Source: Octopus vulgaris (Eukaryota). From it: 64,000 bases of DNA. A program made the translations under genes and the position numbers. The stretch is from NCBI GenBank assembly GCA_951406725.2, contig OX597826.1, forward strand, positions 57,846,001-57,910,000. Reading direction: 5' to 3'. Under the pieces are notes generated by a model. That model made no database searches. It had not been told where the DNA came from and saw only the letters and a program-made list of their open reading frames with translations. How positions within the stretch are numbered: the first letter of the stretch is position 1; the number at the start of each line of letters is the position of its first letter. Of this stretch, positions 2,803 to 41,500 are shown one piece after another.

Positions 2803-3440
2803 TAGTTTTGGCACAATAATAACCTGAAGAACAAAATAAAGATCAGCGTCTACAGGGCCGTGGTTCACACCACTCTTCTCTATGGCTCAGAGACCTAGAT
2901 CACTTACCGCAGTCACATCCGTCTCCTCGAGCGCTTCAACCAACGATGTCTCCGCACCATCCTCAACATACACGGGTGTGACTTCGTCACAAACATTGAA
3001 GTCTTGGAGTGGGCCGAGATGCCCAGCATTGAAGCCATGCTACTGAAGTCCCATCTCCGATGGGCAGGGCATGTCTCCAGATTGGAGAACCACCGCCTTC
3101 CTAAGATCGCCCTGTTTGGCGAACTCTCCACCGACCACCGAGTGAGAGGAGCTCCGAGGAAGCGCTACAAAGACTGCCTCGAGAAGTCTCTAACAGCAAG
3201 TCATGTTAACCACCAGTGCTGGTCAGACCTGGCTGCGGACCGTGATGTCTGGCGCCACACGATCTTCAACGCGCTCAGCAAGTTTGGGGAACAAAGAAGA
3301 GACGCGCTTAAAGACAAGAGACGCAGGAGGAAGGCGCAAGCCGCCTCTGTCACCACACCGGATGTTACCTACGTCTGTGGACACTGCTCACGGACCTACC
3401 TTTCCTATATCGGACTTGTCAGTCATGAGCGTGCATGCAC
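2803..3440 (+). mobile_element. RTE/BovB-clade LINE 3' fragment (post-RT region with C-terminal Zn knuckle)
   Basis: Translation KISVYRAVVHTTLLYGSET*...LRWAGHVSRLENHRLPKIALFGEL...CGHCSRTYLSYIGLVSHERAC. In-frame stop; GC-rich relative to flanks. Confidence 0.9.
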
Positions 3441-4976
3441 GCAAAATAGTCCAGTATCAAACGAAGATGTTTTACGGCATCTTTTAATTTTGTATTCAAA
3501 TTCGGTTTGGAATAAACTTTGCCTTTTATTCTTCAGGTAGCAGCAGAAGTCAATATAATGATTACCAGTAATATGCTAAGGTTGATTCAATCAACTGAGC
3601 ATACGAATCCAACAAAACTGAACTTACGGATAATCAAAAGAAATCATTTTTACAAGTCTATACTCTTTACGTTGTTATGGGTTAAACGAGTTTGACCTGG
3701 GTTTCAAATGTTTTAGGAAACCAATTCAAGACAATAATTGGTTGATTCTTCTGAAAAAAAAAAGGCTAAAAGAAGGAAAGAAAATATACATAAAAAATGT
3801 TATCGAATAAAAAAAATCAAGAGCTTTTATCTATTTTAGACAAATAGTGAAATACCAGTGAATGCAGAAATACAAGGAAGTATTGATTTCTAGGTAGAAA
3901 TACTGGTTTAAACCCCTATTTCTTTAAACTACAATCAACAGTCTATGTTTTGTTAGCAACTACTTATCAAGGCTTTGTAGATGTTGATATTTACAACTGG
4001 TTCTAAAAATATTTCCTCAGAATTGAAAATGTCAGCTTCCTTTTCCAAAGTCAAAGCAATTAGATCCTTAAAGAGTAAAATACTGGGAACAAAAAATCTT
4101 TTTTTAATATTTAAACAAATAAATAAAATTTGAAGTATTTTGTTGAAATCAAATAATTCTTAAATATAAGTAATAAAGACACATCTGATAAAAGTTACTT
4201 TTCGATAATAATCGTAAAGTGTATTATTAGAAGCGTACTTTTTTTTTTTTTTTCAGTTCGAAAAGAAATTAAATTTTTCGAAATTTTTCCTCAAAGCACT
4301 TTCTCTTTAAAGTAAAAATCTGTGGTTCCTTAGAAAGATGATGAAATATTTACTGATGGTTGAAGAAAAGTGGTTATGTAAAGTGTGAACTGTTAAACTG
4401 GCGAACCTGATACATAAAGTTAAATCATAAAGTTTTGGGGGCTTTTTTTTAATCCCTCGGGTGATGGACAATGAAACAAGCATTAGGATGGCGTATTTGA
4501 ATTTGAAGAGCAATCATCAACGTAGTACAAAATTTGTAAAGAAAACTTTAGCTTTGTTGAAATTTTCTCTACAAATTCTATATTGTGATTAGCATTCGGC
4601 ACGTGAAGCAATTAAGATTACAGGTACCCATACGAATATGATACCCTTTAAATATGGAAATACGATATTTATTGTGGTATATAACTGAAAAGAGACAGAA
4701 TGGAAGAATAAAATAAGGAGGAAAGCAAGAGCTTGATAAGTGAAAGAAAACGAAGAATGAAAGATCCAGTCAGATTGGCGAAATAGAACAAAAGCGCGAG
4801 GTAGCGATACAGGACGACAGAAAGAGTGAGAAGGAACTAATTAGAACTCCAGAGACAAAACGAAAGAAATAAGAGAGCGAGACGGAACGAAAGAAAGAAA
4901 GAGCTAGAGAGACGGAACAACATAGAACGTTAGAGAGAAAGAACATAGAATGCAAGAAAAACGGAAAGGAAAATAT

Positions 4977-14722: not shown

Positions 14723-14917
14723 ATGTGACCTCGTGTGTACCGTTGGCGATTGTTTTTCCTCTGTCTTCCCTTCTCTGGATCTTTCCTTCTCCTATGTTTC
14801 CGACGAAGAGCTCCGCTCGAAACGTTAAACCCTCCTTCTTTCCTGAGCGTCCAGTAATACTATATTTGTTCCACGTTCTCGCGTTGTTGTGTTTTTTTTG
14901 TGCTTTCTTGTTTGGAT

Positions 14918-14922
<5 letters not shown>
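14723..14922 (+). mobile_element. Penelope-like pseudo-LTR fragment, family 1, second copy; hammerhead at 14796-14830 has core CCGACGA
   Basis: Aligns to 1435-1633 and is followed by (TA)n. Confidence 0.7.
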
Positions 14923-14988
<66 letters not shown>

Positions 14989-16794: not shown

Positions 16795-18005
16795 GACATT
16801 TGTGAATATAGAGAAAGATCTTGGTAGGATCTTTCACTGCCACTTCTGGTGGTCACTGTTGAAGCTAGGGATAGATGAGTGGCTAGTGAGAGCTGTCCAA
16901 GCCATGTACAGGGACTCAGTCAGTAAAAGTGAAAGTCAGTAATGAGTATAGCAACGAATTTAGTATGCAGGTTGGAGTTCACCAAGGATTAGTTCTCTGT
17001 TTCCTCTTGTTTATCATAGTCCTCCAGGTGGTGATAAACAAGGAAATTAAAATTGGTTACCCATGGGAGCTTCTCTATGCTGATGACCTTGTTCTTATGG
17101 CTGAATTTCTAGAAGAATTAGAGAAGAAATTTCAGGTGTGGAAGCAAGGCCAAGAATCAAAGAGCTTTAGGGTTAATTTACCAAACACCTAAATATTAGA
17201 AGCAGGAAAGCAGGCAAATTACTAATCCCTTCAAAGAAACGTTTCTGCTCGATATGTAGAAAATGTGTACATAGAAATTCCATAGTGTACCCAGTGCAAG
17301 CTATGGACACATAAGAGGACCAGTGGAATTGCAGGAAGGTTAACAAGAAAAGTAATCTTTGTATGAGGCAGATATGCAGGAACAAGAAACACTAAGAACA
17401 TATGGGAAACAGATTTCCTCAAAGTTTCAGGAATATCCTTAGAAGTAGTAGTTGCTTTCTATACATATGTGACCAAATTAGCAGTGGAGGAGGATGCCCT
17501 GAAAGCATAGTTGCTAGAATAAGAACAGGCTGGGCAAAGTTCAGAGAGCTATTACCTTTGTTGGTAATAAAGGGCTTCTCTTTCAGAGTATGATACCTGT
17601 GTACAAACAGCTAGTTTACAGGGTAGTGAAAATGGGCTATGAATGCAGAGGACATGCTGAGGTTGAAAGAAATGAAGTGCAATATCAGTATGCATGTATG
17701 GCAAAGTGTGTTTATGGATAAAATTCGGTATAAAAGGCATTACATGTAGTGTGCAAGAGAGAAGACTGCATGTGAGATCATGTGATGCATATGAACGAAA
17801 GACAGTTGCATAAAGAAGTACCAATTTAGTCTTCATAAGAATGTGCCAATCTCTAAATGTGGAAGGAAACTGTGGAAGATAAAGAGCTGGGAAGTGATGG
17901 ATGAAGGGGTGAGAAATGATCATCAGATGTTGAGCCTCACAGAGGAGATGACAAAGGACCAAGACAATCAGCAATTTGCTGTGCTTGAGAAGACCTGACC
18001 ACCTA
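16795..18005 (+). mobile_element. RTE-clade LINE RT and 3' region, decayed
   Basis: VGVHQG...PWELLYADDLVLMAE...ESIVARIRTGWAKFRELLPLL; frameshifts and stops. Confidence 0.9.
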
Positions 18006-23128: not shown

Positions 23129-24416
23129 CGCAATAGGGGAGAGAGAATAAAAACATTGTGGGGTGGCTAGATGAGAATGAGAAGGAGAAGGAGAAAACCT
23201 ATAGGGAAAATGAATGAGAGGAGAAAGAGAAAAAAAAGGTAATTAAATAATTTTGCAGGAATCAAAAGTGAAAAGTGTATAAAGCAAAAGTGTATAAAAG
23301 GAGTTTATGAATATGCAAAAAAAAAAAAAATTTTTTGATAAAGAAATAAAAAAAATAGAATTAAAAACAAGATGTGCCATGCTTTTTGTTGTAGCAGTTC
23401 TCATTTTTGTATTTCAAATTGGAAATGTTGATATCAATTATATTTTGCACATGCATGTGTGTGTGCATATGTGTGTGCATATGTGTGTGCATATGTGTGC
23501 ACATTTCAACCTTTGTTTCAATTTGCAAGTGGATGCTTGAATATGTATGTACAAACGTATGTATGTATTTATGTTAGCATGTATGTACATGAATGTGTGT
23601 TTGTGTGTATGTGTGAGTGGTCTTTCAAATAATCCCTTTAATTAAGAGGTTGAATACACTCCTTTCCTGCTTTCTGTTTTCTTTTATTTGTTGTTGTTAT
23701 TATTATCATTGTTGTTGTTGTTGTTATTATCATTATTTTATTTTATTTTTTTTCCTATGGTTTTTCCTTTTGGTGAAGGGGGTGGTTAACCACAAGACAG
23801 TGAATGTGAACGGATGGTTAGTAGCTATTCAAAATCTTTGATCCGAACGCTAACTTGGAAGCTAATGCAATATCTGAAATCGATTCCATGTGCATCATCA
23901 AGCAAAACATTACCTCTTCTATGTAACAGGTAGAGAGTGAGAGAGAGAGAGAGAGAGAGAGATTGAAAGAGAAAGATAGACAGAGGGACAGAAGAGGGAG
24001 GAAGGGAGGGAGGGAGGGAGAGAGAATGAGATGGCAGATCACAAAAATAGAAGGAAATGGAGACTTCAAGAAAGACAGAAACAGGAAGCTGAGAAAAGGG
24101 AATAAAAGCAGGTATTCTTTACAATCACTATTACTACTACTTCTACTACTACTTCTACTACTACTACTAGTACTACTACTCAGAAAAAGATAATGAAAGA
24201 ATCCATGATAGAAAAACATAAAATAAAATGATTGGAATATACTACAAAGATCATAAACATCATTGAAGGAAGTTCAAGAACATAGCTTAGAATATAAGAA
24301 AACATGGGTGTGTTGTGATAAACACACAGACAAATACAAAACACACAGACAAGCTTAATTTCATAAATATATGTATCTGAGTGAGACTGTATATATATAT
24401 ATATATATATATATAT

Positions 24417-24735
24417 GAGGGCGCGTGGCTTAGTGGTTAGGGCATTCGGCTCATGATCGTAAGGTTGTGAGTTCGATTCCCGGCGACGCGTTGTGTCCTT
24501 GAGCAAGACACTTTATTTCATGTTGCTCCAGTCCACTCAGCTGGCAAAAATGAGTTGTACTTGTATTTCAAAGGGTCAGCCTTGTCACTCTCTGTGTCAC
24601 GCTGATTATCCCCGAGAACTACGTTAAGGGTACACGTGTCTGTGGAATGCTCAGCCATTTGCACGTTAATTTCACGAGCAAGCTGTTCCGTTGATCGTAT
24701 CAGCTGGGACCCTCGTCGTCGTAACCGGCGGAGTC
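24417..24735 (+). mobile_element. tRNA-derived SINE family C
   Basis: A box TGGCTTAGTGG, B box GTTCGATTCC, then GTGTCCTTGAGCAAGACAC; diverged antisense copy at about 41215-41500. Confidence 0.85.
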
Positions 24736-24794
<59 letters not shown>

Positions 24795-24871
24795 TGCAGC
24801 GTGGGAGGTGTTTATAAGCCATTTAAGAAACACACAAAAGCCGTTCGATTCACTCCAACATTTAAGTTTAA

Positions 24872-24921
24872 TTTGTCAAAATATTTTCGTCGCTAAAATC
24901 CGCGACCTGTTCACTGACAAA
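24872..24921 (-). ncRNA. Hammerhead fold, G3:C8 core variant (copy 1)
   Basis: Exact reverse complement of 24951-25000. Confidence 0.65.
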
Positions 24922-24950
24922 GTCCGTGCTGCATCTGATGCAGCACGGAC

Positions 24951-25000
24951 TTTGTCAGTGAACAGGTCGCGGATTTTAGCGACGAAAATATTTTGACAAA
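24951..25000 (+). ncRNA. Hammerhead fold, G3:C8 core variant (copy 2)
   Basis: TTTGTCA-GTGAACA-G-GTCGC(GGATTTTA)GCGAC-GAAA-ATAT-TT^TGACAAA: 7-bp stem I, 5-bp stem II, palindromic stem III AATATT. Confidence 0.7.
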
Positions 25001-25071
25001 TTAAACTTAAATGTTGGAGTGAATCGAACGGCTTTTGTGTGTTTCTTAAATGGCTTATATGCAGCACGGAC

Positions 25072-25121
25072 TTTGTCAGTGAACAGGTCGCGGATTTTAG
25101 CGACGAAAATATTTTGACAAA
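25072..25121 (+). ncRNA. Hammerhead fold, G3:C8 core variant (copy 3)
   Basis: Identical to copy 2, offset +121. Confidence 0.7.
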
Positions 25122-25767
25122 TTAAACTTAAATGTTGGAGTGAATCGAACGGCTTTTGTGTGTTTCTTAAATGGCTTATAAACACCTCCCACGCTGCAAT
25201 TGTTTTCGTTTCAGCACACGATCTCAGATCAAATTACTTGCTATGCGAGTACATCTCCGTAATATATATATATATATATATGTATAAGGGTGAAAAGGAA
25301 CACACGAGTTGATATATATGAAAAAACAAGTAAAAAATAGAAAATGTCGTCATAATCATCACCACCATCACCATCATCGTCATCTTCTCCTTCTCCTTCT
25401 TCTTCTTCTTCTTCTCCACCCCCTACCCCTTAAGTTTGTCACTAATGTTTTTTAGTATAACACCTACGCTAATTCTATAAACAAGCCTGTCAATATAAAT
25501 ATTCTCCTGAATTGAACTGAGACTGCCAGCCGCCACTGACCATTCAAAATACGACCATCAGGGCACTCCCAGATTCTCCCACCCCCTTTCCTCACCAGCC
25601 TTCCCTCTACTACCCTACCAAGAACTCACAAGTACCTCGAACACACAAGTGCAAACAAGGGAGTCAGAGAAAGGCAGAATGTCACTTAAATCTGAACACT
25701 ACTATAGAAATATTCTTTTAAAAAAACTTTTCTTCTAATTTTTCTAAATTTAATTATTTAATCGTTA

Positions 25768-25805
25768 CAGTTGAAAAGGTCTCAAAATGACCGAAACCGG
25801 TACTG
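25768..25805 (+). ncRNA. Hammerhead fold, U3:A8 core variant (family 3)
   Basis: CAG-TTGAAAA-GGTC(TCAAAAT)GACC-GAAA-CCGG-TA^CTG; lies about 55 bp before a (TA)n tract. Confidence 0.65.
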
Positions 25806-25854
25806 AAATGTTCACTATAAAATTATTTTAGCATTTTCTATTTTTTACTTGTTT

Positions 25855-25900
<46 letters not shown>

Positions 25901-41100: not shown

Positions 41101-41214
41101 TGTTAGGATAAAATTCTGAGAACAAATTTTTCATGTGAAAAATACATTGGAGCGATTTCACATTGGTTTCGAAGTCTATAGCCTGGCTCTTTGTTACAAT
41201 GAGTGTTTTAATTG

Positions 41215-41500
41215 ATATCATCAACTGAAGAGCTTTCTCATGAAGTTATTGTTCCAGTGGCTGAGCACTCCACAGACACGCATACCCATAATGAAATTCT
41301 CAGGGAGATTCAAATTGACTCAGAGTGTGACAAGGCTGACCCTTTGAATTACATGTACAACTCATTTTTGCCAACTGAGTGGACAGGAGCAACAAGAAAT
41401 AAAGTGTTTTACTTAAGGATAGAATACACCACCAGGAATCGAACTTATGACCTTACAATTCATGACCAAATACCCTAGCCACTAAGCCACATGCCTTCAC
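41215..41500 (-). mobile_element. SINE family C, diverged
   Basis: Reverse-complement similarity to 24417-24700. Confidence 0.75.

Follow-up and report, generated by a model that had tools for sequence, protein, structure and literature searches.

Three identical copies of a high-copy hammerhead repeat with a G3:C8 core in a (TA)n microsatellite of Octopus vulgaris: a likely Penelope-like insertion

Penelope-like retroelements leave insertions with a recognizable signature: partial tandem copies, an adjacent inverted copy, a tail at one end only and a bias toward (TA)n (as summarized in PMC8557442). In D. virilis, the commonest form of Penelope has two tandem copies flanked by inverted repeats, and the element contains an internal promoter and a tail at the start of its ORF (as described in PMC2377424). 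Minimal hammerheads of Penelope elements occur by the thousands, mostly as single copies and sometimes as opposite-strand pairs 100–700 bp apart; the consensus given for these min-HHRs has a base between 9 and 10.1, a G10.1–C11.1 pair and a palindromic 15.2–16.2 segment (main account in PMC4209133). For the Poseidon element of Anolis, the purified protein is reported to nick AT-rich DNA, to extend both DNA strands and to use uncut RNA, and it starts reverse transcription internally at two RNA sites that define the tail; these start sites lie 111–118 nt into the ORF, with the hammerhead cut at nt 26 (PMC11167929).

The DNA analyzed here, called the window, is a stretch of 64,000 nt (64 kb) of Octopus vulgaris (assembly GCA_951406725.2, contig OX597826.1, forward-strand positions 57,846,001 to 57,910,000), and all coordinates refer to it. 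A preliminary description, made from the letters of the sequence, had pointed to a palindrome followed by a direct repeat, with three hammerheads of G3:C8 type and a 121-nt unit expected to excise itself. The features of the locus are the following.

24740..24789, no strand: left (TA)n target microsatellite, directly 3′ of the end of a tRNA-derived SINE
24790..24936, minus strand: repeat unit in inverted orientation, spanning the family 5′ end to the proximal 3′ end (25203 equivalent)
24872..24921, minus strand: minimal type-I hammerhead, copy 3 (G3 24914, N17 24879)
24937..25058, plus strand: middle copy, 5′-complete, ending 24 nt before the proximal 3′ end, with a junction microhomology of 1 nt
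24951..25000, plus strand: minimal type-I hammerhead, copy 1 (G3 24958, C8 24963, stem III 24987–24992, N17 24993)
24994..25114, plus strand: predicted 121-nt double-cut unit, weakly paired as a circle (−17.5 kcal/mol)
25059..25261, plus strand: right copy, ~203 nt with its tail, from sequence comparison and family contigs
25072..25121, plus strand: minimal type-I hammerhead, copy 2 (G3 25079, C8 25084, N17 25114)
25171..25260, plus strand: 30 open codons from an ATG to the element end, possibly the start of the ORF of a parent element (no homolog found)
25204..25261, plus strand: 58-nt tail at one insertion end only, abundant in the family, with contig depth continuing to 25254
~25262..25281, no strand: right (TA)n target microsatellite

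The order of the locus is thus (TA)n, inverted copy, middle copy, right copy with its 58-nt tail, and (TA)n. The anatomy given by the preliminary description stands: the 247-bp palindrome (24813–25059) has 123-nt arms with 100% complementarity around a 1-nt centre at 24936, the direct repeat 24938–25058 = 25059–25179 has a period of 121 and an identity of 100%, and (TA)n lies on both sides (24740–24790 on the left, ~25262–25281 on the right). The longest inverted repeat is instead the 145-bp pair 24790–24934 and 25059–25203, with the second plus-strand copy, a pairing that had been overlooked; because of it, the inverted arm is able to pair with either plus-strand copy. The single base at 24936, the spacer of the palindrome, may itself belong to the minus-strand copy as its first base; three of the four sequencing runs discussed below have that base at this place. 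All three copies begin 56–58 nt upstream of the hammerhead cut site. Counted from the cut, the proximal 3′ end lies at 89 nt, the end of the tail at 147 nt and the start of the 30-codon frame, the only open frame that reaches the element end, at 57 nt.

Three identical hammerheads can indeed be drawn, as had been claimed, with position 3 at 24958 (+), 25079 (+) and 24914 (−) and N17 at 24993, 25114 and 24879. In each fold, stem I has 7 bp and stem II has 5 bp closed by G10.1–C11.1, an extra G sits at 9.1 (between A9 and 10.1), stem III is the palindrome AAUAUU alone, the core pair is G3:C8 and the triplet is UUU. The elements N3-UGAN-N8-A with a Watson–Crick 3:8 pair, GAAA, an NUH site and stems I and II are present in all three, and so are the min-HHR traits (the base between 9 and 10.1, G10.1–C11.1 and the palindromic stem III). 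A strict descriptor recovers the three folds from the window and finds nothing in any of 30 block-shuffled versions of it, while a loose descriptor gives one match in 10 of the 30. A second descriptor finds six folds, from three families, in the 64-kb window and none in 50 of 50 shuffles; both hammerhead descriptors were composed after the motif had been seen. Rfam gives no match at gathering score over the 64 kb, and its hammerhead families give none over the three G3:C8 folds at E up to 10, so that the assignment of the fold rests on the descriptor and on the published features of minimal hammerheads. Matches to miRNA families of Rfam (the best at 104.7 bits for a cut-off of 105) were dismissed, as they reflect only the perfect hairpin. 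Since descriptors with a fixed CUGANGA and the Rfam models miss G3:C8, hammerheads are probably undercounted in such genomes.

The repeat belongs to a large family. Contigs from four public runs (of 24 listed) were compared with 25035–25340 at 88% likeness, with 25254–25340 omitted as repeat. Family contigs number 13,194, 7,749 and 3,671 in three DNA-type runs and 1,020 in the fourth run, X13, which is RNA only by guess and whose contigs show neither strand nor level, so that these 1,020 are not counted as evidence of expression. The ratio of peak summed depth to the median depth of eight listed pieces is ~8–9 × 10^4 in the three DNA-type runs; depth being no copy number, the ratio is taken as "very high copy" only. 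The family has a fixed 5′ end: loose ends occur before 25072 in all four runs (36, 28, 30 and 6 contigs), with the same first unit bases across runs and discordant bases between runs further upstream, and the three copies of the window begin within 1 nt of this end. A proximal 3′ end is likewise common to the family, with loose ends behind 25200/25205 leading into AT-rich DNA in X1 (15 + 33) and X2 (22 + 44), one loose end at 25202 in X13 and long X7 contigs that stop there; the family loose ends behind 25205 are TA-rich. By this comparison, the end of the inverted arm is a true family end, and the 58-nt tail is, judged by the high depth up to 25254, common in the family.

At 25079 (G3), 25084 (C8) and 25114 (U17), no variant of at least 3% is present in any of the four runs, and G3:C8 and UUU are therefore traits of the family. 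Two other positions set the window copies apart: 25138 is G in all three copies and A in 91–100% of the family, and 25188 is C in both copies that reach that position and T in over 99% of the family. These shared rare alleles support a single template for all the copies. Between the copies of the window there are no differences in 411 site-lineages (95% bound, 0.73% divergence per copy); in contrast, two SINE copies of the window are 81% identical. The view of the preliminary description that the insertion is young thereby gains support, from copies that are identical and have family-rare alleles in common, and the comparison supports a recent event unless conversion or polishing homogenized the arms; the identity could also stem from later gene conversion or from polishing of the assembly. 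Among the family variants listed, several change C to T or G to A within CpG sites (25104, 25150/25151, 25192/25193 and 25207), a pattern which suggests that the family is methylated and not uniformly young.

Two joints in the family contigs deserve mention. Two contigs of X1 and one of X2 have a joint at 25116, which lies two bases away from the predicted cut; this joint might stem from rare copies of cut RNA or, joints being many, be due to chance. Another joint leads from 25129 to 25072 with one extra T, at a depth of 431 in X1 and 3,227 in X2, and could reflect an inversion at stem I or, alternatively, an array in which bare hammerheads of ~59 nt follow one another head to tail at some other place in the genome. 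Such an array, if true, would be a better retrozyme candidate than the present locus. Outside these runs, a 17-nt unit pattern occurs at 120 loci of metagenome contigs, all at chance level (best BLAST match, 37 nt at 81%), and longer unit patterns occur neither in viral contigs nor in prokaryote genomes (0 in both).

A Penelope-like origin had been put forward, and the architecture does fit PMC8557442 and PMC2377424 in the features they describe, as the motif fits PMC4209133. Tandem and inverted copies with a one-sided tail, a sense hammerhead upstream of the 3′ end and (TA)n are all found here. Of the analogy with pseudo-LTRs, the layout of inverted plus tandem copies holds, and the random 5′ truncation of extra copies does not: in its place is a 5′ end fixed throughout the family and shared within 1 nt by all three copies. 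This shared 5′ end fits a short non-autonomous unit or the 5′ end of the transcript itself. There is no RT or GIY-YIG ORF at the locus. A Pfam search of 150 of the 412 candidate frames of the window gave one RVT_1 match, 8 kb away and of LINE type, and no host exon was recognized; the 30-aa frame (25171–25260) has no match among 1.84 billion representatives and no usable match in the protein atlas. Membership in the Penelope group rests on anatomy, since these frames yielded no autonomous RT/GIY-YIG partner. Other points count against this reading: the middle copy is 5′-complete and 3′-short, the reverse of the textbook partial tandem with its truncated 5′ end; the 3′ end of that copy is not among the family ends listed; the tail has 58 nt versus 30–40 nt in print; and a target-site duplication is unreadable in (TA)n.

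Taken together, the three identical copies of a ~200-nt, high-copy hammerhead repeat in (TA)n are likely to derive from one recent insertion, made by the enzyme of a Penelope-like retroelement from uncut RNA, at a locus that is probably no source of a 121-nt RNA. We infer the repeat to be either the 5′ segment of a Penelope-type transcript or a short, non-autonomous element with the same layout. The transcript segment would hold the start site, the hammerhead, the ORF start and the internal start sites of reverse transcription. A GIY-YIG nuclease would nick both (TA)n strands, and each end would prime a cDNA, the left one starting at the proximal site (25203 equivalent) and the right one at the distal site 25261, which would give the tail. 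Both cDNAs would run to the fixed 5′ end of the RNA; the right one would then re-prime internally (25179/80 equivalent) and run off again, and the joining of the two cDNA ends head to head would produce the palindrome. The template RNA was likely uncut, because every copy extends 56–58 nt upstream of the cut site. Read-through transcription of the locus, if there is any, would likely give a perfect hairpin of 123–145 bp and not a cleaved unit. Two other origins were considered and rejected. In a rolling-circle origin from a 121-nt circle, the right copy should not continue, as it does, into 82 nt absent from such a circle; as for self-copying of a hairpin as the source of the inverted arm, the arm carries normal downstream sequence and not the tandem junction.

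Among the rows listed for the four runs, no contig spans the tandem junction at 25058/25059 and no joint leads from 25179 to 25059; the run contigs may come from other individuals, so that a junction missing there proves nothing. The mean contig depth over 25035–25045 is 3, 121.7, 0 and 0 in the four runs, and the value in X2 was discarded as proof of the junction, as 55 of the 121.7 come from one contig that is more plausibly a normal copy, diverged in sequence and misplaced on the duplicated stretch. Retrotransposition might have made the inverted and direct pair only, the 121-bp tandem being added later at the DNA level, when the tip of the hairpin broke or slipped and sequence was copied again from the palindrome centre. 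Breakage and template switching are known to occur at long perfect palindromes, the duplicated block does begin at the palindrome centre, and its end is not among the family ends listed. That centre is, however, also the fixed 5′ end of the family, so that reverse transcription explains the start point equally well, and tandem plus inverted forms are routine in Penelope-like elements; we regard a later duplication as unlikely. A slightly smaller chance is given to an artefact of assembly, whereby the palindrome of a very high-copy repeat would have given rise to a false 121-bp duplication, or to arms that match perfectly. The 100% identity of the copies and the lack of any listed contig or joint at 25058/25059 would agree with this, and such structures are said to trouble assemblies (PMC8557442). 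On the other hand, the 64-kb window contains no N and an intact (TA)n of 434 nt, as would be expected of long reads, a simple collapse would not create a new joint of sequences such as this junction, and the inverted arm terminates at the true family end.

The remaining alternative is that of the preliminary description, in which an internal promoter fires at the palindrome centre, a double hammerhead cuts after 24993 and 25114, and a 121-nt linear or circular RNA accumulates, as in a newborn retrozyme. The fixed 5′ end makes such a route conceivable, as it allows a promoter at that point and fits a start site; Penelope has an internal promoter (PMC2377424), a G3:C8 core is reported to keep partial activity, and animal retrozymes, which derive from pseudo-LTRs, are defined operationally as at least two tandem hammerhead units. 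A double hammerhead is also topologically possible, with a 6-bp stem III shared between 24987–24992 and 25108–25113, and in an RNA that starts at 24937, free of the inverted arm, it costs 5.4–10.7 kcal/mol over inactive monomer folds. For an RNA starting at 24790 or 24400, on the contrary, the cost is ~74 kcal/mol, because the inverted arm zips one plus-strand copy into a helix of 123 or 145 bp, and the outer stem I of the double fold has in the read-through plus-strand transcript a probability of ~1e-48 or lower. Over 20 combinations of start and end, the shared stem III has a probability of at most 9e-10 from 24790 and of 2e-6 to 4e-3 from 24937, with a best case of 0.05 for a trimmed RNA (24950–25125). 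Nearest-neighbour folding models ignore tertiary and protein help, and the hammerhead of Poseidon is protein-assisted (PMC11167929). In these models, the double hammerhead is open only to transcripts whose 5′ end lies at the palindrome centre or downstream of it. The claim that the tandem supplies a stem III partner in cis is thus not borne out as an effective one, the inverted arm burying one partner, and release of 24994–25114 appears unlikely; the caveats attached to it were a weak UUU site and a long hairpin that competes with the fold. UUU is called a poor substrate (PMC6908138), dimers and trimers of Penelope min-HHRs cleave at a low level in the assays given in PMC4209133, eight of nine Xenopus dimers left no product (bioRxiv 10.64898/2026.07.22.740005), and in the data given for Anolis no RNA-seq read ends at the cut site (PMC11167929). 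Demonstrated retrozyme circles have 170–400 nt, are highly self-paired and mostly contain canonical hammerheads. Among the loose ends listed for the four runs, none cluster at the cut site 25114/25115, and the 121-nt unit depends on the 25058/25059 junction, as it carries that joint, for which no support was seen elsewhere. Accumulation of a 121-nt RNA is, on balance, very unlikely. Read-through of the locus would more likely yield a long perfect hairpin, and through it small-RNA processing or editing, than cleavage.

A bolder form of the same idea, to which we attach very little probability, would see here a nascent retrozyme: one insertion would have duplicated a solitary unit of Penelope type, with its internal promoter and a natural G3:C8 hammerhead, and a 121-nt circle would now be cut out of the resulting dimer. 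If it were true, the circle would be smaller than any demonstrated animal retrozyme circle, and the fixed ends of tens of thousands of copies would map the start site of the parent and both its reverse-transcription starts; a real 121-nt circle would mean that the passage from pseudo-LTR to retrozyme is possible in a single step.

The window holds other repeats besides this locus. A second Penelope-type relic (25312–25866) lies 50 nt to the right, with 35-nt perfect inverted ends in (TA)n; a minimal hammerhead at 25771–25802 has U3:A8, a stem III ACCGGU and a GUA site, with a weak match to Rfam HH9 (19.7 bits). A ~200-nt unit with C3:G8 is present at 1434–1632 and at 14723–14924 (91% identical, same ends, (TA)n terminus), each with a minimal hammerhead, the second of which has U4C, and with a 3′ end that follows the predicted cut by 97 nt. 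A tRNA-derived SINE-like element (24416–24737, +) immediately precedes the insertion, with an 81%-identical minus-strand copy at 41213–41499; the tRNA model scores 25.1 bits at 24421–24490, below cut-off, and read-through from this SINE would take in the inverted arm. A LINE-type fragment (16890–17189) has the RVT_1 match (E 4.8e-05) and is LINE-like by its motifs, and an RTE-like C-terminus was recognized by eye at 2899–3540, without a Pfam match. Penelope-type hammerhead relics are ordinary in this window, and the locus is one more example of a described pattern.

Both the architecture and the motif class are already in print, and the natural G3:C8 core is the sole mildly unusual trait, for which novelty is not claimed. 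Lunse et al. 2017 reportedly lists 104 Penelope hammerhead motifs. A natural G3:C8 may be contained in that work (cited via PMC6765202); in the publications consulted, G3:C8 was found only in engineered rescue mutants, and it restores activity only in part. The text on core variation in PMC3088659 names U3:A8 as the sole natural covariation. The residue G3 completes a pyrimidine tract followed by CAG (25070–25079, and in the other two copies) that resembles a splice acceptor at the border of stem I and core. In D. virilis Penelope, the intron ends at stem I (PMC4209133). As a reason for the swap to G3:C8, this likeness is speculative. The family retains G3:C8 at very high copy number and is a natural case in which to ask whether cleavage is required of Penelope hammerheads at all. 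The locus itself is a clean fossil: a single 5′ end, upstream of the cut, is common to its three copies, and this makes it consistent with the in vitro model of 2024 (both strands primed, two internal starts, uncut RNA).

Among known systems, the non-LTR retrozymes of animals (Cervera and de la Pena 2020, PMC7229834; Li, Clavereau and Pollet 2026, bioRxiv 10.64898/2026.07.22.740005) resemble this locus in their non-coding tandem units with a type-I hammerhead each and in their derivation from Penelope pseudo-LTRs. The assembled sequence contains two units in direct succession, each with a complete hammerhead, and the tandem falls under the operational definition stated in the 2026 preprint only if the descriptor accepts G3:C8; genomic units from 51 bp are listed there. 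The locus differs in having only two units, at one locus, sequestered by an inverted arm, and the 121-nt unit departs in size and self-pairing from demonstrated circles: its circular fold is weak (−17.5 kcal/mol) and leaves long unpaired stretches.

With the min-HHRs (Cervera and de la Pena 2014, PMC4209133), the hammerheads share type I, the 9.1 base, G10.1–C11.1, a short palindromic stem III and thousands of dispersed copies, and a UUU site is shown as well for a Penelope-linked hammerhead of Crassostrea gigas (Fig. S3 of that paper). Unlike the motifs of that figure, where C3:G8 and U3:A8 are the only pairs and none of 56 has G3:C8, the core pair here is G3:C8, and stem I has 7 bp versus the 4–5 bp given for S. 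mansoni.

The closest likeness in architecture is to the insertions of EN+ elements as described for Penelope/Poseidon, Neptune, Nematis and Hydra (Craig et al. 2021, PMC8557442; Schostak et al. 2008, PMC2377424), with an inverted copy on the 5′ side, a partial tandem, a one-sided tail, a (TA)n target and a hammerhead in the repeat. The differences are that here there is no ORF body, the 5′ ends are fixed, the upstream tandem copy is 3′-short and the tail has 58 nt. The Poseidon element PAc of Anolis carolinensis, in the account of PMC11167929, is autonomous, has C3:G8 and places the ORF start in stem II, whereas here the only open frame that reaches the end starts 57 nt after the cut. In both, two 3′ ends define the tail, with the proximal one ~90 nt after the cut, the target is AT-rich and the RNA template is uncut, as is likely for the octopus insertion.
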